NCBI GenBank assembly: GCA_937871435.1
Contig: CALMQM010000073.1
Coordinates: forward strand, 3,282-67,281
Direction of reading: 5' to 3'
From: an uncultured Bacteroidota bacterium
Lineage (GTDB): Bacteria; Bacteroidota; Bacteroidia; AKYH767-A; 2013-40CM-41-45
Length of the DNA: 64,000 nt
Shown: piece by piece, positions 9,062 to 20,096 of the stretch
Numbering within the stretch: position 1 is the first letter of the stretch
Layout: every line of letters begins with the position of its first letter
Translations under genes and position numbers: made by a program
Notes under the pieces: generated by a model
Told to the model about the DNA's origin: nothing
The model's database searches: none
What the model saw: only the letters and a program-made list of their open reading frames with translations

Positions 9062-10165
9062 ATGAAAAAAATCTACCTGTTTGTTTTAGGTACACTATTC
9101 AGTTTAGTTTCTACTGCACAAATTACGATCAGCTCGGCTGATTTACCCAGCGCCCTAGACACCTTTCGGGTGAGCAATGGTCAGGCTTTTACCGGTATGG
9201 ATATCAATCTGACCGGAGCCAATACTACATGGGATTTTTCTCAGCTCACTTCAACAGGGCAAACTGTGGATTCTTTTCTGACCGTTGGAAGTACAGCAAC
9301 TGTCTATTCCATTGTTTTCTTTGATAATATTATTAATCCAAATCGTGCGAATCAGGCGGTTCGTGGACCTTCGTTTAATTTTGGAACAACTATCAGTGTT
9401 TCGGATGTGTACAATTTTTATTACAATTCCTCTTCATTCTATAAGCAAGTAGGATTCGGCGCGGCGGTAAATTCAGTTACTATTCCTGTGTTATATTCGC
9501 CGCATGATATAGTGTATAATCTTCCCATGCATTTTGGTGATGTAGATTCGTCAGACAGTGGTTATGAACTGGATCTGACTTCTACAATTGGTATTTACTA
9601 CAAAGTCAATCGCACCCGCCACAATACAGTAGACGGATGGGGAAGTCTCACTACACCATTCGGAACATTTGATGCATTAAGAGTGCTTACTACCATAGGG
9701 GAAAGAGACAGTATCTATATTGATTCACTGGGATTTGGATTTAATACACCACTGGTTACTACAAAAGAATACAAATGGCTTGGTCTGGGACAGGGAATTC
9801 CCTTGTTGCAAATTAACACTACGAATAATGGAGTGGTTACACAGATCACTTACAAAGACTCTTTGCCTTCCATCATCAATACAGTTACACCAATTGTGAA
9901 AAATCCTATCTCTTCAATTTTCCCAAATCCCTGTGCCGGAAAAGCGGTTCTTCAATATGAATTGGAGCAATCTTCCTATGTCAGTATTGATGTATTGAAT
10001 GCAACCGGTGAATTGGTGCAACACGTATCAGAACAAAAAATGGAAGCAGGACATCATCTGTCATTATTGAATAATGAAAACGGTCAGTTAAGTCCGGGAG
10101 TGTATTCTGTTCGACTGATGATAGATGGAAAAGCAAGTCAGAAACAGCTCATAGTAGCTGATTGA
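9062..10165 (+). CDS. T9SS C-terminal sorting domain-containing secreted protein (function unknown)
   Basis: 367 aa. Signal peptide. C-terminal ~80 aa (FPNPCAGKAVLQYELEQSSYVSIDVLNATGELV...VYSVRLMIDGK) fits the Por-secretion tail pattern. Confidence 0.75.
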   Translation: MKKIYLFVLGTLFSLVSTAQITISSADLPSALDTFRVSNGQAFTGMDINLTGANTTWDFSQLTSTGQTVDSFLTVGSTATVYSIVFFDNIINPNRANQAVRGPSFNFGTTISVSDVYNFYYNSSSFYKQVGFGAAVNSVTIPVLYSPHDIVYNLPMHFGDVDSSDSGYELDLTSTIGIYYKVNRTRHNTVDGWGSLTTPFGTFDALRVLTTIGERDSIYIDSLGFGFNTPLVTTKEYKWLGLGQGIPLLQINTTNNGVVTQITYKDSLPSIINTVTPIVKNPISSIFPNPCAGKAVLQYELEQSSYVSIDVLNATGELVQHVSEQKMEAGHHLSLLNNENGQLSPGVYSVRLMIDGKASQKQLIVAD

Positions 10166-11389: not shown

Positions 11390-11536
11390 TTTTAGCGTAT
11401 TAATTTTTAAAAACAGGCTGCAAAAATAGTCTTTTTTCCCATATAATCAACCCATTTCAGCCTGAGTTTCAAAGGCTTTTTCAACATGGAAAGCCTAAGA
11501 AGAAAGATGTTATTTTTGCGCTCTAAAATAAAAAAC

Positions 11537-12001
11537 ATGAAAGTTCTATCTCTGATTTGTTCGGGTTTAATTGTGCTTGCATCCTGTTCTTCAGGTGGTT
11601 TAAAAGATGGAGGAGGCAAACAGTTTGGGTCTGCATTCGATACCAGCTCAGCTGTGAGCATGTCTGCTCTTGCATCCCAAATGGGTGATAAATCCAGTAT
11701 GGATTGCACCGTTAAAGGAACAATTTCCGAAGTCTGTCAGTCCGAGGGTTGCTGGTTTACTGTACAAAATGAAGGAGCGGAACCGGTAACAGTCAGAATG
11801 CGTGATCATGGATTTACTGTTCCAAAAAACATTGCTGGCAAAGTTGTATTCTTTAAAGGCACTGCGAAAACTGATACAACAAGTGTCGAGACCTTGCGTG
11901 ATTACGCGAAAGATGCCGATAAAAGTGAGGCTGAAATAGAAGCAATCCAGAGCCCGAAAGTAGAATTGGTTGTGGAAGCAGACGGAGTATTGTTGCAATG
12001 A
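11537..12001 (+). CDS. Lipoprotein, DUF4920-like
   Basis: The ORF track starts at 11486. The ATG at 11537 gives a lipoprotein signal MKVLSLICSGLIVLASCSS. Cys-containing core EVCQSEGCWF. Its stop overlaps the next gene's ATG (ATGA). Confidence 0.6.
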   Translation: MKVLSLICSGLIVLASCSSGGLKDGGGKQFGSAFDTSSAVSMSALASQMGDKSSMDCTVKGTISEVCQSEGCWFTVQNEGAEPVTVRMRDHGFTVPKNIAGKVVFFKGTAKTDTTSVETLRDYAKDADKSEAEIEAIQSPKVELVVEADGVLLQ

Positions 12002-12534
12002 TCAAAAAACAGATCATTTATTTCTTCCTTCTGTTGGTGTCACATCTGCCTGCTTTGAAATGTACCGCTCAGAGTGATGTGAGTGGATATCCTGTGCCGG
12101 TGATTGGTACAACTGCGTTCAATATTCAGGGAATTGATTCTTCAGGAAATAAGCGTGACTTATTTTCATTGAAAGAAAATACAATCTTCCTTTTCTTTTA
12201 TGAGACTTCATGTCATTTGTGTGAAGCTGTGTTGCCTGACCTCATTCAAAATTATGAACGTTGGAAAGCTTCAGGAATTGAGATTTATTCCGTTGCGATA
12301 AGCAATGATCATGATATATGGAAAGGGTTTTTAAGAGAGCACCCAACTCCATGGATAAATGTGATGGATACTGTGAATAAGGATACGATTGTATCCACCT
12401 TTAAAATTAATGTAAGCCCAACCATTTATGCATTAGACAAGAACAAACGAATTGCTTCTTCCAGAATGGTTCGCGCGGAAATGATTGAAGAATGGTTGAA
12501 GGAAAATTATAAAAGTACACCACAGCAAAAATGA
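11998..12534 (+). CDS. TlpA-like thiol-disulfide oxidoreductase (thioredoxin fold)
   Basis: 178 aa. Signal peptide, then a CxxC motif (YETSCHLCEA) in thioredoxin-like context. Start and stop overlap the flanking genes. Confidence 0.7.
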   Translation: MIKKQIIYFFLLLVSHLPALKCTAQSDVSGYPVPVIGTTAFNIQGIDSSGNKRDLFSLKENTIFLFFYETSCHLCEAVLPDLIQNYERWKASGIEIYSVAISNDHDIWKGFLREHPTPWINVMDTVNKDTIVSTFKINVSPTIYALDKNKRIASSRMVRAEMIEEWLKENYKSTPQQK

Positions 12535-13382
12535 AAACAATAAAACTGGTAGAATGCCCGAGGGATGCCATGCAGGGATGGAACGCATTTATTCCAACAC
12601 AGCAAAAGATAAAATACCTGAACAGCTTATTGAAAGTAGGATTTGATACGCTCGATTTTGGCAGTTTTGTTTCTCCGAAAGCTATTCCGCAGTTGAAGGA
12701 TACCACAGAAGTCCTGTCAGGATTAACTCTTAGCAATACATCAACCAAACTGCTTTCTATAGTTGCTAATTTGCGGGGTGCAGAGCAGGCAGCAAGCTTC
12801 GAGGAAATTACTTATCTGGGCTTTCCATTTTCTGTATCAGAAGAATTTCAAAAGAGAAATACAAATTCAACTATTGAAGAATCCTTAGAACGCGTTGAAG
12901 AAATTCAACGATTGTGTTTGCAAAAGAAGAAAGTTCTTGTCATCTACATTTCCATGGGATTTGGAAATCCTTATGGTGAAGAATGGAATGCAGAAATTGT
13001 CATCAAATGGGTGAAACGGCTGGCAGAAATGGGAACACAAATAATAGCTTTGTCGGATACTGTAGGGGTGAGCAACCCTCAGAACATTAAAACCTTGTTT
13101 CAGGCATTGATTCCCGAAATTCCACAAGTAGAATTCGGAGCTCATCTTCATTCTCATCCGTTGACATGGATGGAAAAAGTCGAAGCTGCTTTCATGAGCG
13201 GATGCAGAAGATTTGATTCGGCATTGAAAGGTATCGGAGGATGTCCGATGGCCAATGATGCATTGGTTGGCAACCTGGCAACAGAAAATGTGGTCGCTTA
13301 TTTTAAAGGCCAGGAGGACCTTGGTCTGGATGATTCAGCCTTCAGAGAGTCCATGATCCTGGCTTCTGAGATTTTTCATTGA
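12531..13382 (+). CDS. HMG-CoA lyase-like (HMGL-like TIM-barrel) protein
   Basis: 283 aa. N-terminal VECPRDAMQG resembles the HMGL VExGPRDGLQ motif. The C-terminal His-containing metal-site region (GAHLHSHPLT) is present. Confidence 0.65.
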   Translation: MKTIKLVECPRDAMQGWNAFIPTQQKIKYLNSLLKVGFDTLDFGSFVSPKAIPQLKDTTEVLSGLTLSNTSTKLLSIVANLRGAEQAASFEEITYLGFPFSVSEEFQKRNTNSTIEESLERVEEIQRLCLQKKKVLVIYISMGFGNPYGEEWNAEIVIKWVKRLAEMGTQIIALSDTVGVSNPQNIKTLFQALIPEIPQVEFGAHLHSHPLTWMEKVEAAFMSGCRRFDSALKGIGGCPMANDALVGNLATENVVAYFKGQEDLGLDDSAFRESMILASEIFH

Positions 13383-13534
13383 TTTTTTCTGCAACTTTTT
13401 CCCCTAAATACGTTTCGGACAAGATGATGAATTGTTGAAAAAAGATTGTTGATTCTCTTCAGATTCATTCTGTTACTCAGGGTTTCGATTAAATTTGCAC
13501 CAGAATAAAAAAAGCGGTTTTCCGTTAAGTATCC

Positions 13535-15550
13535 ATGAACAAACACATCAAAAGCAGCGTTTTTTTAGTACTGAACCTGGTTTTATTTCTGAGCTTTTTG
13601 CCTCAATTGTCCGTCGCACAGCGAACTGGATATGTTCAGGTGAATGGCAAAGTCAGACAAAATAACCGTCCCATCGGGGGTGTTATTGTCAAAATTACAT
13701 GTCCCGGTACGATTGAACAAACAGTAACGTCTAAGGATAATGGAACTTATGTTTTCAATCTGGACTTACAAAAAAATTACACTATCACTTTTGAAAAACC
13801 CGGCTTGGTATCGAAGAAAGTCGAATTCAACACTGTTGTACCTCCGGATCAAAGCGACATTATCTATCAAAATGAATTTGCCATGGATTTGTTTGAAGAT
13901 GTTGCCGGAGTCAGCCAAAATGCATCCATGGGTAAAGCCGTAGCCAAAATATCATACAATCCAACCTATGAGGATTTTGTTCACGACCCTGCTTACACAA
14001 AACAAATTCAAAACGAACAAGACCAGGCGAGAAAAGCGGCTGAAGAATTAAATCGAATGCAGGAAAGAGCAAGACTTGATTCTCTGAATAAACTGTGGAA
14101 TGATTCTCTTGCTAAAGTAAAGGCAAGGGAAGCACAAATGCTGGCAGCCAAAGCCGAACAGGATCGATTGAAAGCTGAACAGGAAAAAGCCAGACAGGAT
14201 TCTATCGCAAGAGCAACAGCAGATGCAGCAGCAAAAGCGTTGGCACTTTCAAAAGAACAGGCAAGATTGGATAGTATCTCAAAAGCAGAAGCCAAAGCAA
14301 AAGCATTGGCAGATGCAAGAGATAAAGCCCGACAGGATTCTATAGCTAAAGCTGAGGCGGATCAGGCAAAGCTTGCTGCCTTGGCACAAGCCCGGGAGAA
14401 AGCCCGACAGGATTCTATCAGCAGAGCACAGGCAGAACAAAGTCGTAAGGATTCACTTGCACGCGTAAAAGCTGATGCTGATGCTAAGGCTTTGGCAGAG
14501 GCTAAATTGAAAGCCGATGAAAAAGCCAGAAAAGATTCTATTCAGAAAGCGGAAGCCGATGCTATAGCCAGAAAAAAAGCAGAGCAGGACAGTATCAGTC
14601 AGGCCCAGATGCTTGCTGAGAAAGCCAGACTTAAAGCAGAAGCCGATTTGAAAGCCAGAGAAAAAGCCAGCAAAGATTCTACGGCAAGAGCAGAGGCACT
14701 CGCTGAAGCTCGAAAGCGTGCTTTGGCGGATTCTTTAGCTTCTGCTGAGGCAGCTACTAAAGCAAGGGAGAAGCAAAGAGAGGATTCAATTTCCAGAGCA
14801 CAGACTGCTTTAAAAGATCGCCAGAAATTTGTGGCTGATTCAACTGCGAAAGCGGAAGCAGATGCAAAAGCACGGTTGATTCAGGAGACTGCGGCAAGAG
14901 AAAAAGCTAAGCAAGATTCTATATCAAGAGCTCAGCTTGCGGAAGCTCAGGCAAAGGCTGATGCGGATCGTAAACAAAAGGAAGCTGAAGAAAATAAACG
15001 ATTACTTGCCGCTCAGGAAAAAGCAAAACAAGATTCCACTGCTAAAGCGGAAGCAGATCGTTTGAAAAATGAAGCGCTTGCTAAGTCACAAGCAGAGAAC
15101 GAAGCGAAAGCGAAAGCCGAAGAGGAAAGAATTCGCAAACAAAACGAAGAAAAAAACAGACAGGATTCCATTGCCACAGCACAGCGACTCAAAGCTGAAA
15201 AAGACGAGCAGGATAGAAGAGCAAAAGCTTTGGCAGAAATAGAAGCGAAGAAACAATTGTTGTCTAAAACCAACGCTGCAAATGACGATAAATCAAAAGC
15301 TCCGCCAAAACCTGCAGCGGTACCAAAGATCAAAGATTCCGATTACCATGAAGGAATTACAGAAGAAACAGTCAATGAAAGCAGTCGAACAATTTACCGT
15401 ACTGTTGTGAAAATTGATGGTACCGCGATTAATTACCAGAAGATCGTTTATAACTGGGGTGGAGTCTTTTATTTCAAAAATGAAAGTAACCTCACTCAAT
15501 CTTTGTTCGATCAGGAAATCAAAAACGCGAAGACTGTTTTGAACAAATAA
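13535..15550 (+). CDS. Exported protein with carboxypeptidase-regulatory-like N-domain and long Ala/Lys/Glu-rich repeat rod
   Basis: 671 aa. Signal peptide and a CarboxypepD_reg-like beta-sandwich (GYVQVNGKVRQNNRPIGGVIVKI...). Then ~400 aa of low-complexity helical sequence with many K[AE][RK]QDSI[AS][RK]A[EQ]A units, and a C-terminal ~100-aa globular tail. Confidence 0.75.
   Translation: MNKHIKSSVFLVLNLVLFLSFLPQLSVAQRTGYVQVNGKVRQNNRPIGGVIVKITCPGTIEQTVTSKDNGTYVFNLDLQKNYTITFEKPGLVSKKVEFNTVVPPDQSDIIYQNEFAMDLFEDVAGVSQNASMGKAVAKISYNPTYEDFVHDPAYTKQIQNEQDQARKAAEELNRMQERARLDSLNKLWNDSLAKVKAREAQMLAAKAEQDRLKAEQEKARQDSIARATADAAAKALALSKEQARLDSISKAEAKAKALADARDKARQDSIAKAEADQAKLAALAQAREKARQDSISRAQAEQSRKDSLARVKADADAKALAEAKLKADEKARKDSIQKAEADAIARKKAEQDSISQAQMLAEKARLKAEADLKAREKASKDSTARAEALAEARKRALADSLASAEAATKAREKQREDSISRAQTALKDRQKFVADSTAKAEADAKARLIQETAAREKAKQDSISRAQLAEAQAKADADRKQKEAEENKRLLAAQEKAKQDSTAKAEADRLKNEALAKSQAENEAKAKAEEERIRKQNEEKNRQDSIATAQRLKAEKDEQDRRAKALAEIEAKKQLLSKTNAANDDKSKAPPKPAAVPKIKDSDYHEGITEETVNESSRTIYRTVVKIDGTAINYQKIVYNWGGVFYFKNESNLTQSLFDQEIKNAKTVLNK
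14027..15260 (+). repeat. Intragenic degenerate tandem repeats encoding an A/K/E/Q/D-rich coiled-coil region
   Basis: Reiterated GATTCTAT/GATTCCAT (DSI) cores at 14197, 14333, 14411, 14535, 14680, 14918, 15040 and 15168, with irregular 50-130 nt spacing. The antisense frame gives Ala/Ser/Phe-rich spurious ORFs. Confidence 0.6.
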
Positions 15551-15573
15551 CAGAACATCTTTTTTTAGAATGA

Positions 15574-15607
15574 AAAACTCCTGCATTAAAAGCCGGAGTT
15601 TTTTTTT
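15574..15607 (+). terminator. Rho-independent terminator after the repeat-protein gene
   Basis: The AAAACTCC stem pairs with GGAGTTTT across a 13-nt loop, followed by a T-tract. Confidence 0.6.
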
Positions 15608-15730
15608 GGATGGAAATAAATTCAGGTGCTGCTAATCAATATCACTTGATACAGAACAAATAGATTTCTGAAATTTTGTCTGATTGAAATCATGACATGC
15701 GCCGATTTGGCAAATAGGATTTTAAAATAT

Positions 15731-15792
15731 TGTCAATTTGTCTCGTAAAAATAATTTTTTGGTCAATTTTTCCGGATGGTATGTGAATTGAC
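15731..15792 (+). promoter_or_regulatory. Candidate operator: three copies of GTCAATT(T) upstream of hsp20
   Basis: GTCAATTT at 15732-15739 and again at 15762-15769 (30 bp apart). An inverted copy AATTGAC sits at 15786-15792, 60-120 bp upstream of the hsp20 ATG. Confidence 0.3.
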
Positions 15793-15855
15793 GAAAGCAG
15801 GTCATTCAAATAAAATTTAATCATCCAAACAAAAATTAAATAGGAGGACAAAAAA

Positions 15856-16308
15856 ATGACACTTGTAAAATTCAGAAATGCTAAACCTGTTGATCGTTAC
15901 ACAGGCATCCCATCCATCTTTTCAGATTTCTTCGGAGATTTTATTCAGGACGAAATTTTCCCGCGCAATGTTTTCAAATCTGTACCGGCTGTAAATATCA
16001 GTGAACAGGCAGATTTGTACCGCGTAGAACTTGCAGTACCCGGAATGAATAAAACCGATTTCAAAATCTCAGCGGAGAATGGTGTGTTGACAATTGTTGG
16101 TGAAAAGCAGGAAGAAAAAACTGATGATCAGAAGAAGTTTACCCGGAAAGAATTTTCTTATTCTTCCTTCAGCCGGACTTTCACCATGCCGGATCATGTG
16201 AATGCAGACGGAATCTCTGCTGAATATGTGAATGGCGTTTTGACACTGGTTCTTCCAAAAAAGGACGAAGCAAAGAAGAAAGAGGCGAAAGAAATTTCGA
16301 TCCAATAA
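15856..16308 (+). CDS. Small heat-shock protein, Hsp20/alpha-crystallin family
   Basis: 150 aa. Alpha-crystallin-domain pattern (YRVELAVPGMNKTDFKISAENGVLTIVGEK ... GVLTLVLPKK). Preceded by TAGGAGGA. Confidence 0.9.
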   Translation: MTLVKFRNAKPVDRYTGIPSIFSDFFGDFIQDEIFPRNVFKSVPAVNISEQADLYRVELAVPGMNKTDFKISAENGVLTIVGEKQEEKTDDQKKFTRKEFSYSSFSRTFTMPDHVNADGISAEYVNGVLTLVLPKKDEAKKKEAKEISIQ

Positions 16309-16325
16309 TTTCCATGTTGATGATG

Positions 16326-16364
16326 AAAGCTGCCGCGGTGAAAACCGGGCAGCTTTCTTGTTTT
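16326..16364 (+). terminator. Rho-independent terminator after hsp20
   Basis: AAAGCTGCC pairs with GGCAGCTTT in a 9-bp stem, followed by CTTGTTTT. Confidence 0.55.
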
Positions 16365-16455
16365 CCGGATTCGTGTTCCTACGACTACAACGACTGCATT
16401 TTTACTACCTTCGCCGGAGAAACAACCTGATGGTTTCAGGTGTAAAAAAAAACTT

Positions 16456-17238
16456 GTGAAAAGTGACAAACCGGTCATTCTTGTGACCAACGACGATGGG
16501 ATTACAGCTCCGGGATTGCACAATTTAGTGCAGGCAATGGAAGGTCTTGGTGAAATTACTGTGGTGGCTCCGGATAGTCCGCAATCCGGAATGGGACATG
16601 CTATTACAATCAATCAGCCGCTTCGTCTCGACAAAGTGGATGTTTATGCGAATCATAGCTGGTATCAATGTAGCGGAACTCCTGTTGATTGCGTAAAGAT
16701 TGCCATCGATAAAATCCTGCATCGAAAACCGGATTTATGTGTCTCGGGAGTAAACCATGGAAGCAATTCTTCCATCAATGTGATCTATTCCGGAACGATG
16801 TCTGCCGCGATGGAAGGAGCCATTGAAGGAATTCCTTCTGTTGGATTTTCGCTTCTTAACTATGCATTGGATGCTGATTTTTCAGCAGCCAGAGCATTTG
16901 CAAGGGTAGTAGCACGGAACGTTTTGGAAAACGGACTGCCATCGGGTACACTGCTGAATGTAAATATTCCGAATCTCAGTTTGGACGAAATTAAAGGCGT
17001 GAAAATTTGTCGTCAGGCGATGGCAAAATGGATCGAGGAATTTGATGAACGTTTGGATCCAAACAGGAGGAAATATTATTGGCTTACCGGAAAATTCATC
17101 AACAACGACAAAGGTGAGGATACCGATGAATGGGCATTAAACAATGGATATGTATCAGTTGTTCCTGTTCAGTTCGATTTTACGGCGCACCATGCAATCT
17201 CTTTCTTAAACGGTCTGAATTATGATCTTGAAAAATAA
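16456..17238 (+). CDS. surE: 5'/3'-nucleotidase SurE
   Basis: 260 aa. ILVTNDDGITAPGL N-terminal motif and the SurE fold. Non-ATG start (GTG). Confidence 0.9.
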   Translation: MKSDKPVILVTNDDGITAPGLHNLVQAMEGLGEITVVAPDSPQSGMGHAITINQPLRLDKVDVYANHSWYQCSGTPVDCVKIAIDKILHRKPDLCVSGVNHGSNSSINVIYSGTMSAAMEGAIEGIPSVGFSLLNYALDADFSAARAFARVVARNVLENGLPSGTLLNVNIPNLSLDEIKGVKICRQAMAKWIEEFDERLDPNRRKYYWLTGKFINNDKGEDTDEWALNNGYVSVVPVQFDFTAHHAISFLNGLNYDLEK

Positions 17239-17527
17239 GATCAGAGATAATTTTTGGACAGGTTTAGTAGTTGGGGTAGTCCTGCTGTGCATCAACTATT
17301 TCTTCTTTGAATACTTGCGTTCCATTCTTGCTGATCATTACGGCAATCCATACCTATTTCCTGCTCCACGTATTCAGCTCTTTGCGATTTTGGTTAACAT
17401 TCTGCTTTTCCGTTTATGTTTGATCAATTTCGACAAGGAAAAAACAGCAAAAGGAATTCTGTTCATCACTGTTCTCTCCGCACTCGGCTACTTATTTTAT
17501 TTTTATAAATTTCAACATCATTCCTGA
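17222..17527 (+). CDS. Small hydrophobic membrane protein (paralog 1)
   Basis: 101 aa with 2-3 predicted TM segments. The ATG overlaps the surE 3' end. Shares the ...KEKTAKGIL... architecture with the next ORF. Confidence 0.55.
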   Translation: MILKNKIRDNFWTGLVVGVVLLCINYFFFEYLRSILADHYGNPYLFPAPRIQLFAILVNILLFRLCLINFDKEKTAKGILFITVLSALGYLFYFYKFQHHS

Positions 17528-17528
17528 T

Positions 17529-17819
17529 ATGCAGAAATGGCTGGATCATGAAATTACGGGTTTGTTGCTTGGACTTCTTGCTCCGGTGATTGCATTTTGG
17601 CTCTATGTATTCCTGCAATATCCGGATTTGTCGATGATGGATGTATTTTCGTCTTTTATGAGAAGAAAAGTGCACACACATGTAATTAGTCTTGCAGTGA
17701 TCGCGAACCTGCTGATCTTTTTTTGTTCCCTTTGGTTGCACAAAGAGAAAACAGCCCGGGGAATTCTCGGTACGACAATCGGATATGCCGTGCTTGTATT
17801 TATTCTTAAATTATTCTGA
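17529..17819 (+). CDS. Small hydrophobic membrane protein (paralog 2)
   Basis: 96 aa and hydrophobic. The motif HKEKTARGIL matches DKEKTAKGIL of the preceding ORF. Its stop overlaps the lpxB ATG. Confidence 0.55.
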   Translation: MQKWLDHEITGLLLGLLAPVIAFWLYVFLQYPDLSMMDVFSSFMRRKVHTHVISLAVIANLLIFFCSLWLHKEKTARGILGTTIGYAVLVFILKLF

Positions 17820-18937
17820 TGAAATATTACATCATAGCCGGTGAGGCCTCAGGCGATCTGCATGCATCAAATCTGATGAGAGAGTTGTCAAAGCTCGATA
17901 CTTCAGCAGAATTCAGAGCATGGGGCGGCGATTTGATGGAAGCGCAGGGAGCAATACTTGTAAAGCATTACCGCAACTTAGCCTTCATGGGTTTCACGGA
18001 AGTGGTGATGAATCTCAGAACTATTCTGAAAAATATTGAAACGTGTAAAAAAGATCTCCTCGCACACAAACCGGATGTCTTAATCCTTGTAGACTACCCG
18101 GGTTTTAATTTGCGCATTGCAGAATACGCGAAGGCTCAGGGTATCCGGGTATTTTACTATATCTCACCACAGGTTTGGGCATGGAAACAATCTCGTGTAC
18201 ACAAGATCAAACGTACTGTCGATAGAATGTTCGTCATTCTTCCTTTTGAAAAAGAATTTTATCAGAAGTTTGATTACCCTGTAGATTTTGTCGGGCATCC
18301 TTTGCTTGATGCAATCACTCAAAAGAAAAATTTATTTCCTTCAAAAACGGAGTTCATTCGAAGAAATTCTTTGGAAGACAAACCGATTATAGCTTTGCTG
18401 CCTGGGAGCAGAAAGCAGGAAATTGAAACGATGCTTCCGCTTATGTTATCGGTTCAAAAGGATTTTCCTTCTTACCGCTTTGTGATTGCCGGGGCACCTT
18501 CACAACCGGATTCATTTTACCAAAAAGTTTTGGGCAAAAACGGAAATCCTGTTATTCATGGACAAACTTATGAATTGCTAACTCATGCTGATGCAGCTTT
18601 AGTAACTTCAGGAACTGCAACTCTGGAGACAGCTTTGTTAAAAGTACCTGAAGTTGTCTGTTACAAAGGCGGTACCATTTCCTATTACATTGCCAGAAGT
18701 CTCGTCAAAATAAATTACATCTCCCTGGTAAATCTGATCATGGATCAGGAAGTGGTGAAGGAATTGATTCAACACGATTTGAATACTCCACAGATCACCC
18801 GGGAATTGAGGAAAATACTTGACCCGGATTACCGTAGCAGCTTGTTGAAGAAATATGATCAATTGGCAAACATATTAGGCGGATCCGGAGCTTCAGCGCA
18901 TACTGCCAGGTTGATGTTTCAATACCTTCAAGAATAA
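17819..18937 (+). CDS. lpxB: Lipid-A-disaccharide synthase
   Basis: 372 aa. N-terminal YYIIAGEASGDLHASNLMREL is typical of LpxB (GT19). Confidence 0.9.
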   Translation: MKYYIIAGEASGDLHASNLMRELSKLDTSAEFRAWGGDLMEAQGAILVKHYRNLAFMGFTEVVMNLRTILKNIETCKKDLLAHKPDVLILVDYPGFNLRIAEYAKAQGIRVFYYISPQVWAWKQSRVHKIKRTVDRMFVILPFEKEFYQKFDYPVDFVGHPLLDAITQKKNLFPSKTEFIRRNSLEDKPIIALLPGSRKQEIETMLPLMLSVQKDFPSYRFVIAGAPSQPDSFYQKVLGKNGNPVIHGQTYELLTHADAALVTSGTATLETALLKVPEVVCYKGGTISYYIARSLVKINYISLVNLIMDQEVVKELIQHDLNTPQITRELRKILDPDYRSSLLKKYDQLANILGGSGASAHTARLMFQYLQE

Positions 18938-18944
18938 GGATGTA

Positions 18945-20096
18945 ATGAATCGAATTCTATTGCTATTATTTTTTTTATTCTTTTTCTTCAATTCATTTTC
19001 TGTAGATGTAAGGGTGGGACTAAAATCGATTTCGAATTCAAGTTCCATAACTTTTATTGCTTCCGGTGCTCCATATGATATTTTATCAGGAAAAAGAAAA
19101 GTAATCACACTAAAGAAAGATGAATCTGTACGCATCGAAATCAGAGGTGCATTGATGAACCTGAAGAAGTATGGAAAATCAAAAGGAACTTTTCGAAAGT
19201 TGAAGTTCATTACACAAGCCGATTCCGCTTTTTTCAGAATTCGATCCAATCATCCGGAAACAGTTACCATTCCTTATGATGGAAATGTTTTACTTACTAT
19301 CCGGGACAATTACATTCAGGTGGTGAATGAGGTTCCTTTAGAACGGTATGTTGCAGCTGTGGTGGAGTCGGAAATAGGAGATAGGAAAGAAGCAGAATTT
19401 TTAAAAGCCTGCTCTATACTTGCAAGAACATTTGTGATGAGTCATTGGGATCGTCATTCCGTAGATGGCTTTTCTGTTTGCGACGAAACACATTGTCAGG
19501 CTTATAACTCAAGAAGTCGCTTTAATACAGCCATCCGGCCGGCAGTGATGGAAACCGGGAACAAAGTTCTCACAGATTCACTTTGTCATCTTATTGCCGC
19601 GCCATATCACAGTAATTGCGGCGGTCAGACTATGGCTGCTCAGGATGTTTGGTCAAAACCTCTTCACAATACCAGAAGCGTAAAAGATTCATTTTGTCTG
19701 GCAGGAGAACATGCATTATGGGAATATTCTTTACCCAAAAATGAATGGATACATTACTTGAAAAGCAATGGGATTTTATTGACCGACACAAGTCTGGTTG
19801 ATTCCTTGCTTTGCTTTAATCAGGACGAAAGATCAACTTATTTTAATAGTAGCGGTGCATCTATTCCGCTAAGAAAGATTCGCGACGATTTTCATTTAAA
19901 GTCTACCTTTTTTAGTATTTGTATTCAAAATGATTTGGTCATTTTTAGTGGGAGGGGATTTGGGCACGGAGTAGGATTGTGTCAGGAAGGAGCACTCGAG
20001 ATGGCATTAGTAGGATACACAACAAAAGAAATATTAGATTTTTATTTTGATGATGTTCGGGTCACTGACTTATCAGAATTGGAATATGAAAAGTGA
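18945..20096 (+). CDS. SpoIID/LytB domain protein (amidase enhancer-like)
   Basis: 383 aa. Signal peptide. SpoIID-type core (VPLERYVAAVVESEIG ... CDETHCQAY ... GHGVGLCQEGA). Confidence 0.8.
   Translation: MNRILLLLFFLFFFFNSFSVDVRVGLKSISNSSSITFIASGAPYDILSGKRKVITLKKDESVRIEIRGALMNLKKYGKSKGTFRKLKFITQADSAFFRIRSNHPETVTIPYDGNVLLTIRDNYIQVVNEVPLERYVAAVVESEIGDRKEAEFLKACSILARTFVMSHWDRHSVDGFSVCDETHCQAYNSRSRFNTAIRPAVMETGNKVLTDSLCHLIAAPYHSNCGGQTMAAQDVWSKPLHNTRSVKDSFCLAGEHALWEYSLPKNEWIHYLKSNGILLTDTSLVDSLLCFNQDERSTYFNSSGASIPLRKIRDDFHLKSTFFSICIQNDLVIFSGRGFGHGVGLCQEGALEMALVGYTTKEILDFYFDDVRVTDLSELEYEK

Follow-up and report, generated by a model that had tools for sequence, protein, structure and literature searches.

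A 671-amino-acid (aa) open reading frame (ORF) with an ATG start, located at positions 13535–15550 on the forward strand of a 64,000-nucleotide stretch of contig CALMQM010000073.1 from an uncultured Bacteroidota bacterium (the whole stretch is referred to below as the window), encodes a protein in five parts: a signal peptide, a transthyretin-like β-sandwich, a long rod, a Pro-rich linker, and a C-terminal β-meander with a helix (Table 1). The rod of this protein, which is called here the rod protein, carries 16 D-S-[I/L/T] motifs that each fit the sequon of the general O-glycosylation system of Bacteroidota, D-(S/T)-(A/I/L/V/M/T) (PMC12871550, PMC8550257). Judged from its sequence, there is about an even chance that the rod protein is an end-docked envelope protein built on a single α-helix and bearing a comb of predicted O-glycans.

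The original prediction for this gene, made by a model from the DNA letters, proposed a signal peptide, a CarboxypepD_reg-like sandwich, a long helix, and a small C-terminal domain, and this arrangement was borne out by Pfam and by AlphaFold2 (AF2) models of both ends. The C-terminal domain, which had been put at about 100 aa, is indeed folded but comprises only 69 aa and is preceded by the Pro-rich linker. The K-A-R-Q-D-S-I repeat of the rod had been treated as a structural feature, and it was overlooked that the invariant core of this repeat is the O-glycosylation sequon of the phylum. No other feature of the protein is as informative.

Table 1. Location of the parts of the rod protein gene and of the ORFs opposite to it, in window coordinates (pLDDT, predicted local distance difference test).
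Feature	Position	Strand	Basis
Sec signal peptide (aa 1–28)	13535–13618	+	Predicted signal peptidase I cleavage at SVA↓Q, exposing Gln29
N-terminal domain (aa 29–151), transthyretin-like / CarboxypepD_reg β-sandwich with family-specific extension	13619–13987	+	Pfam, AF2, Foldseek
Rod (aa 152–583), predicted Ala/Lys/Glu/Arg/Gln-rich helix with a single-α-helix-like charge pattern	13988–15283	+	Composition, charge pairs, AF2 helix start
16 D-S-[I/L/T] motifs, each fitting the Bacteroidota O-glycosylation sequon	14078–15172	+	Motif listing, shuffles, orthologue conservation
Pro-rich flexible linker (aa 584–602, ...KSKAPPKPAAVPKIKDS)	15284–15340	+	Pro at aa 590, 591, 593, and 597; non-helical, AF2 pLDDT 61–72
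C-terminal domain (aa 603–671), five-stranded β-meander and C-terminal helix	15341–15547	+	AF2
Antisense ORF, 95 aa	14008–14295	−	Low-complexity Ser/Ala/Phe/Cys/Leu translation inside a gene conserved on the + strand; judged spurious
Two similar antisense ORFs (106 and 97 aa)	15013–15333 and 15293–15586	−	Likewise judged spurious

Sequon array and predicted helical rod

D-[ST]-x tripeptides occur 17 times in the whole protein, and the 16 that fit the sequon are all located in the rod, with their Asp residues at aa 182, 190, 222, 246, 268, 293, 306, 334, 352, 381, 399, 417, 435, 461, 500, and 544; the 17th is a DSD in the linker. This array corresponds to 3.8 sequons per 100 aa of rod, and its 16 members compare with 1.18 ± 1.06 in shuffles of the rod (maximum 7 in 20,000 shuffles). 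The number of about 16 copies given in the original prediction was confirmed, but the consensus proposed for them, K[AE][RK]QDSI[AS][RK]A[EQ]A[DE], matches only 2 copies, and the spacing ranges from 8 to 44 residues, not from 18 to 43. Only the core D-S-[I/L/T] is constant, within a longer conserved motif, E-K-A-R-Q-D-S-I-A-K-A-E-A.

The same bias was found in the rods of 77 proteins of the close clade, which contain 1167 D-[ST]-x motifs, compared with 192 expected from composition. The third residue is A, I, L, V, M, or T in 96.8% of these motifs, against a background of 41.5%, and the individual counts (L 433, I 388, T 194, V 59, A 30, M 26, and S 16) follow an order that is close to the one at experimentally observed glycosites, namely L, I, V, T, A, S, M (PMC12871550). 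Of the acidic residues in front of [ST][ILVTM], 1100 are Asp and 14 are Glu, even though Glu is the commoner of the two by a factor of 1.6; Glu is not tolerated by the O-glycosylation system of B. fragilis (PMC12871550). Several D and S columns are invariant among 30 orthologues, amid a region that otherwise varies freely. The distances between successive sequons, of which 18, 25, 29, and 32 are common, show their strongest periodicity at 3.60 residues (R = 0.365, compared with a null maximum of 0.11). Since the sequences are related, these counts are not independent of one another, but where the peak falls is informative all the same. This phasing suggests that the serines are aligned on one face of a continuous α-helix. 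When repeat numbers were compared across related genomes, as had been recommended with the original prediction, 35 species genomes were found to carry 4–23 sequons on rods of 261–616 aa, with a correlation of r = 0.88 between number and length and approximately one sequon per 31 residues.

Sequon arrays were also identified in quite different sequence surroundings. In P0238, a 436-aa metagenome protein with the same N- and C-terminal domains, the spacer is not Ala/Lys/Glu-rich and consists of 18 tandem 10-residue units of the form D-S/T-L/I-x-[K/R]-x5, which amounts to 10 sequons per 100 aa, and only the sequon and the basic residue are kept from unit to unit. The 18 sequons of P0238 are DSL, DTL, and DSI; P0173 carries DTT, DSV, and DSA, and P0228 carries DSM and DST, each in flanks of its own. 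The sublineages represented by these three proteins made their sequon arrays independently.

The general O-glycosylation system of Bacteroidota modifies Ser and Thr residues of non-cytoplasmic proteins in the periplasm, and most of the resulting glycoproteins are periplasmic or membrane-associated (PMC12871550, PMC8550257). In non-cytoplasmic proteins, the occupancy of sequon serines is usually close to complete; engineered sequons are glycosylated as well, and proteins can be glycosylated across species boundaries (PMC12871550). In T. forsythia, 312 sites in 145 proteins have been reported, with a glycan of 1.7 kDa on average (PMC8550257), and for P. intermedia the literature gives 443 sites in 224 glycoproteins; the typical load is thus about 2 sites per glycoprotein. 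The rod protein has a predicted Sec signal and 16 sequons in a soluble rod, which are the properties of a substrate of this system, and many of the 16 sites are probably glycosylated.

The rod itself shows a distinctive composition. Pro and Gly are absent from aa 153–589 (437 residues); aa 161–575 consist of 26% Ala, 14% Lys, 11% Glu, 9% Arg, 8% Gln, and 8% Asp, and strongly hydrophobic residues make up 12.9% of the rod. Pairs of opposite charges at i/i+3 and i/i+4 number 134, compared with 74 ± 6.6 in shuffles, an excess of approximately z = 9. No hydrophobic periodicity was detected in the rod at 3.5 residues (z = −0.2, or −0.7 when Ala is counted) or at 7 residues (z = 1.4). A canonical coiled coil was ruled out because the rod lacks a 3.5-residue or heptad hydrophobic signal, and an amphipathic 11-mer helix of the apolipoprotein or LEA type was ruled out because no 3.67-residue hydrophobic periodicity is present. 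The pattern is the signature of a predicted single α-helix of the ER/K or TolA-II type and not of a coiled coil or a bundle. The continuity of this helix is suggested by the composition and by the 3.6-residue phasing of the sequons, since the AF2 models cover both ends only; an unbroken helix of 432 residues would measure approximately 65 nm.

End domains, protein family, and gene context

The signal peptide, MNKHIKSSVFLVLNLVLFLSFLPQLSVA↓Q, can be laid out as MNKHIKSS-VFLVLNLVLFLSFL-PQLSVA↓Q, with two Lys residues in the n-region, a 14-residue hydrophobic core, V at position −3, and A at −1. A28 and Q29 are each at least 90% conserved among 30 orthologues, and the site agrees with the "Q-rule" of Bacteroidetes, under which signal peptidase I cuts its substrates between Ala and Gln (PMC5837995, PMC10653852). 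The original prediction was correct in stating that an N-terminal transmembrane anchor is lacking; a cleavable signal peptide with the conserved A↓Q stands in its place. No lipobox Cys was found in aa 1–55, and a lipoprotein was ruled out because the signal peptide region contains no Cys. After cleavage, the polypeptide has a mass of approximately 71 kDa. We infer from these features that the rod protein is exported and probably periplasmic.

The N-terminal domain was matched by PF13620 (CarboxypepD_reg) over aa 35–106 with E = 1.3e-7 and a score of 32.3 bits, which equals the gathering cut-off of 32.3, and the corresponding domains of relatives reach 45.9 bits. An AF2 model of aa 29–179, built from the family alignment, has a pLDDT of 95.2, and the helix begins in it at model residue 124, that is, residue 152 of the protein, with a pLDDT of approximately 90 at its start. 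An extension of approximately 45 residues, PVAKIxYNPTYEDFxxDxxY, contains invariant aromatic and acidic residues, adds strands to the sandwich, and clamps the base of the helix. A Foldseek search of the PDB returned the SleC prodomain, the transthyretin-like domain of carboxypeptidase D, CnaB, cohesin modules, and the N-terminal extension (NTE) of SusC (9hfj), with E values of 3e-6 to 7e-4 for SleC, carboxypeptidase D, CnaB, and the SusC NTE, and a profile search of the PDB matched NOMO and the B domains of SdrD. The domain is therefore a bona fide CarboxypepD_reg or transthyretin-like domain, of a generic fold that transfers no function. Like the SusC NTE, it is the first domain after the signal peptide in an envelope protein of Bacteroidota; unlike the SusC NTE, it leads into a helix and not into a plug and barrel, and it has the 45-residue extension.

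The C-terminal domain is characterized by the signature Y.EG.TEET...R.I.R.VVK..G...Y.K..Y.WGG.FYFKN. The AF2 model of the C-terminal part, also built from the family alignment, has a pLDDT of 87.5 overall and above 90 over the fold. No consistent Pfam match was found in the C-terminal domains of 49 family members, no PDB match was obtained by sequence profile, and a Foldseek search of the PDB returned only insignificant partial matches with E values of at least 0.1 (an SMC head sheet and a PUR repeat; best E = 0.11, TM-score 0.5). A word-indexed search with the C-terminal domain profile alone recovered short fragments only. As modeled, the C-terminal domain is a novel 69-aa fold with no counterpart in Pfam or the PDB. 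In one protein, P0068 (697 aa), Laminin_G_3 and HYR domains take the place of the usual N-terminal domain, with a short rod and the C-terminal domain behind them; the C-terminal domain is thus a module in its own right, which could serve for anchoring or sorting.

Approximately 40 full-length orthologues with 40–66% identity were found, all of them unannotated, and a 555-kb contig of a Bacteroidia metagenome-assembled genome (MAG) encodes an identical protein, which is recorded there as hypothetical. When the query was split, the N- and C-terminal domains were recovered together in approximately 95 of 120 matches, frequently with no match to the middle; the middles of these 95 or so proteins are A/K/E-rich and 167–944 aa long. 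An exhaustive hidden Markov model search with the C-terminal domain profile identified 1585 cluster representatives at E ≤ 1e-3 and 759 at E ≤ 1e-10. The C-terminal domain is at the extreme C-terminus in all of the 150 representatives listed out of the 1585, and nearly all full-length representatives have a complete N-terminal domain immediately after the signal peptide, with spacers of 113–1225 aa in between. The longest spacers exceed the shortest more than 10-fold across the family and 2.4-fold (261–616 aa) within the close clade, and the spacers are of several kinds: plain A/K/E-rich helix, TPR-like repeats of approximately 68 aa, a 10-residue D-S-L repeat, and the sequon-bearing helix. 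The TPR-like spacers occur in P0184 (2282 aa) and in P0078, P0079, P0083, and P0097 (approximately 1000–1165 aa), which are matched by the Pfam TPR models only as sums of weak matches.

All named members of the family come from Bacteroidota MAGs and are called "hypothetical" or "carboxypeptidase-like regulatory domain-containing"; no cultured or characterized member was found among the named matches, which include no isolate and no informative name. In the JGI data, P0294, P0303, P0312, P0352, and P0127 bear automatic names such as "chemotaxis protein histidine kinase CheA", "flagellar biosynthesis GTPase FlhF", and "colicin import/uptake membrane protein"; the Ala/Lys/Glu-rich rod is the apparent source of these spurious labels. 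Candidatus Pollutiaquabacter aromativorans (order Ca. Pollutiaquabacterales), for which a closed genome exists (CP185379.1), belongs to the close clade. Membership in TolA and in the cargo of the type IX secretion system (T9SS) was excluded, as described below. The architecture and the family, as described here, are held with high confidence.

At 45 loci, which were drawn from different assemblies and among them a closed 3.7-Mb genome, the same syntenic slot holds a gene for a full-length orthologue. The block, which spans 11486–20096 in the window and was compared with loci L004–L047, contains genes for DUF4920, thioredoxin-like, and HMGL-like proteins, the rod gene, and genes for Hsp20, SurE, LpxB, and SpoIID. 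In the close clade the order is HMGL-like, rod gene, Hsp20 (not always present), SurE, and LpxB, with the HMGL-like gene upstream at 38 of the 45 loci and SurE downstream at 32 of them. Distant members of the family are found in unrelated housekeeping contexts in which this block is not kept. One MAG, RE-9nov16-37, has the orthologous gene in two pieces, each at the end of a contig (L035 and L044). Despite its diverged repeats, the gene is thus able to interrupt assembly from short reads, and some "short" family members in databases are therefore probably fragments.

The sense strand of the rod gene is strongly purine-rich (AT skew 0.35–0.48), which accounts for the antisense ORFs in Table 1. 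These had been described as strong and spurious; they do exist and are spurious, but they are modest. Promoter and terminator scans remained at chance level.

Known systems and alternative explanations

Single α-helix (ER/K) domains, such as those of myosin-10, myosin-6, and caldesmon, act as rigid spacers between functional domains. The rod resembles them in its lack of Pro and Gly, its few hydrophobic residues, the absence of a heptad, and its excess of opposite charges at i/i+3 and i/i+4, and differs from them in being richer in Ala (26%), lower in Glu, bacterial, extracytoplasmic, and broken up every 31 residues or so by the glycosylation motif, with a monomeric helicity that is predicted. 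Lubricin (PRG4) is a mucin-type bottlebrush in which terminal docking domains flank a densely O-glycosylated center of variable length. The rod protein has the same plan of end domains and an O-glycosylated (here predicted), length-variable center, by analogy only and without homology, but its backbone is a predicted helix and not a disordered Pro/Thr/Ser-rich chain, its glycan density would be far lower, and the chemistry is bacterial. Within the phylum, the heaviest known load is that of TfsB from Tannerella forsythia, in which 19 of 20 predicted sites are occupied by approximately 34 kDa of glycan; TfsA and TfsB, which make up the surface layer, carry a C-terminal sorting domain and belong to the T9SS cargo (PMC8550257). 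The rod protein resembles TfsA and TfsB in carrying many sequons of the same type in one exported protein (16 here and up to 23 in orthologues), whereas its sequons are periodic on a low-complexity helix, it has no T9SS domain, and its glycosylation is a prediction only. In these terms, the rod protein combines two known kinds, Bacteroidota O-glycoproteins and single-helix spacers.

Two further systems were considered and rejected. The TolA model TIGR02794 scores 14.7 bits against the rod protein (cut-off 59.45, E = 0.013) and only over aa 158–309; the resemblance to TolA domain II noted in the original prediction is therefore real in composition only. Hhalign gave a probability of 0.55% for the C-terminal domain profile against the TolA protein P0369, PF06519 (TolA C-terminal) matched neither the rod protein nor the C-terminal domains of 49 family members, no tolQ, tolR, tolB, or pal gene is adjacent in the contexts examined, and genuine TolA proteins are picked up by the family profile through their A/K/E stretch and nothing else. 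Both proteins have a long Ala/Lys/Glu-rich helical stalk and a small terminal globular domain, with weak profile matches in both directions, but the rod protein has no membrane anchor, so that it cannot couple to TolQR, and it has an additional N-terminal β-sandwich, the sequon array, and a hypervariable rod length. Membership in TolA was ruled out by the model score, the missing anchor, and the unrelated C-terminal domain. A 367-aa protein encoded at 9062–10165 (+) in the window has a T9SS C-terminal sorting domain (PF18962, E = 1.5e-7), and the organism therefore has a T9SS. In the Pfam and NCBIfam searches, the T9SS sorting domains of type A (PF18962/TIGR04183) and type B (TIGR04131) gave no match to the rod protein at E ≤ 1, none was found in the 49 family C-terminal domains, and hhalign of its C-terminal domain against the T9SS domain of 9062–10165, used as a negative control, gave a probability of 0.14%. 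In PMC11285876, the T9SS C-terminal domain is described as a seven-strand Ig-like sandwich. T9SS cargo was ruled out by the lack of a sorting-domain match and by the meander-and-helix fold predicted in place of such a sandwich.

Several observations weigh against a glycosylated, end-docked rod, and some of them favor the alternative that the D-S-[I/L] repeats are purely structural, acting as an N-cap, a D(i)-K/R(i+4) salt bridge, or a repeat that binds a partner or an ion, so that the protein would be a naked single-helix spacer between docking domains. The conserved motif is longer than the three-residue sequon, and K or R is found four residues after the Asp in 13 of the 16 copies here and in 13 of 18 in P0238; this basic residue indicates constraints beyond the published sequon that are possibly structural. 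Ala occupies the third position in only 2.6% of motifs in the close clade, although the sequon allows it and the rod contains approximately 25% Ala. The 3.6-residue phasing is that of a motif read in a helical frame, and distant members do without the motif, their rods showing no sequon enrichment (0.29 per 100 aa), so that glycans cannot be essential to the core function of the family. A transferase may be less ready to accept sites in such a strongly helix-prone sequence, which makes their use uncertain. Among window ORFs of at least 150 aa, the ratio of observed to shuffle-expected D[ST][AILVMT] was 2.6 in the 13 with a signal peptide or transmembrane segment and 1.8 in the 37 others, which is a weak and small test; no O-glycosylation genes were seen in the 64-kb window, to which the view of the genome is confined; and neither a partner of the end domains nor an operon could be read from the close-clade and distant gene contexts. 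A purely structural repeat is nevertheless considered unlikely: the near-absolute use of Asp over Glu is unexpected for a salt bridge or a cap, the tolerated third residues, including Thr, Val, and Met, match the preferences of glycosites, and the two biases together reproduce the known specificity of glycosylation. Moreover, such motifs are normally occupied in exported Bacteroidota proteins (PMC12871550), and DTT, DSV, DSA, and DSM occur in other sublineages, where the surrounding sequence is quite different. As a separate observation, a sequon excess was also present in ORFs without a signal peptide, and observed/expected tests of this kind therefore need a better null than composition shuffling.

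The remaining alternatives concern where the protein acts and whether it exists. A TolA-like tether or ruler, spanning the periplasm from the inner-membrane side to the outer membrane and setting or sensing envelope width, would fit the TolA-II-like composition and weak TIGR02794 match of the rod, the JGI names that mention colicin import, the globular domain at the far end of the rod, and the envelope genes LpxB and SpoIID nearby. The usual width of the periplasm is approximately 25–30 nm, and a helix of approximately 65 nm is well over it; spacer variation on the scale found in the family and even in the close clade is incompatible with a ruler, and the subthreshold score, the missing anchor, the C-terminal domain unrelated to TolA domain III, and the absence of adjacent tolQRB or pal make this reading quite improbable. 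The tether of the original prediction is thus plausible insofar as two conserved ends flank the rod, but a periplasm-spanning ruler is a misfit. The protein could instead be a cell-surface fibril or adhesin whose C-terminal domain is a new sorting or anchoring signal and whose glycosylated rod projects from the cell. In all representatives listed, this domain is at the extreme C-terminus after a flexible linker, as secretion and anchoring domains are; in P0068 it follows Laminin_G_3 and HYR, a pair typical of surface proteins; rods of up to hundreds of nanometers fit more easily outside the cell; and surface-layer proteins carry the heaviest O-glycan loads known in the phylum (PMC8550257). This is nonetheless judged improbable, because the domain matches no T9SS sorting-domain family in Pfam or NCBIfam, is unlike the T9SS domain of the neighboring protein in profile and unlike the seven-strand T9SS sandwich in its predicted fold, and is far better conserved than typical sorting signals, and because there is no lipobox and no dedicated transporter gene adjacent in any context examined. 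Surface projection, which the original prediction had also suggested, accordingly receives no support from known export signals, whether a T9SS C-terminal domain or a lipobox. Finally, a low-complexity ORF without a real product, or a repeat collapsed or expanded by metagenome assembly, might be suspected in a sequence from a MAG whose orthologue is split between contig ends in another MAG (L035 and L044). The nucleotide copies of the repeat are only 60–76% identical, Tandem Repeats Finder reported no array in the rod gene, and the repeats are old; these results, together with the orthologues at 45 loci of different assemblies, exclude an assembly artefact, which had been named as a possible refutation of the original prediction and did not materialize. 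With the identical protein on the 555-kb contig, the shared syntenic slot, and end domains that both fold confidently, the chance that the product is not real is negligible.

Proposed mechanism and significance

In the proposed mechanism for the end-docked, glycosylated rod, Sec export and cleavage at A28↓Q29 would release a soluble cell-envelope protein, which we infer would stay in the envelope because no outer-membrane export signal is present. Its two globular ends would be kept apart by a helix of approximately 430 residues that is stabilized by i/i+4 salt bridges and not by a coiled-coil core. After export, the general O-glycosylation machinery would attach an oligosaccharide to most of the 16 serines, and the outcome would be a stiff rod with a glycan comb mostly on one side of the helix. 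With glycans of 1.7 kDa, as in T. forsythia, approximately 27 kDa of sugar would be added to the 71-kDa polypeptide. Each end domain would presumably dock onto a conserved partner in the envelope, or the two onto one another, and the glycosylated rod would form a spacer or brush that is hydrated, resistant to proteases, and tolerant of changes in length; the glycans would plausibly protect and hydrate the rod. A conserved function in the end domains, with the rod as spacer or bulk, is suggested by the more than tenfold variation of the spacer and by the clade-specific sugar array. The docking and spacer roles are put forward tentatively, as possible rather than probable. A wider and more speculative reading, which is unlikely as it stands, is that the family represents an unrecognized envelope system of uncultured Bacteroidota, in which end domains that dock on fixed envelope structures, or head-to-tail on each other, are combined with an evolvable spacer (naked helix, TPR-like solenoid, or glycan-bearing helix). 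In the clade of the window it would have taken the form of a bottlebrush glycoprotein whose one-sided comb of 4–23 O-glycans builds up a hydrated layer, either periplasmic or at the cell surface.

If the glycans were absent, the finding would shrink to an uncharacterized, TolA-like-looking rod protein of uncultured bacteria. Irrespective of glycosylation, a family of approximately 1600 cluster representatives is defined that shares end domains, has a very plastic spacer, and carries generic annotation at most. The function of the general O-glycosylation system of Bacteroidota is described as largely unknown (PMC12871550). In the rod protein, the repeat units seem to have been under selection chiefly as carriers of sequons. 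If the rod is glycosylated, it would be a natural high-density substrate of this system, in which a sequon recurs about every 31 residues in phase with a single face of the helix and longer rods hold more sequons, and it would offer both a handle on what the glycans do and a scaffold for probing how the transferase acts on helical sequence.

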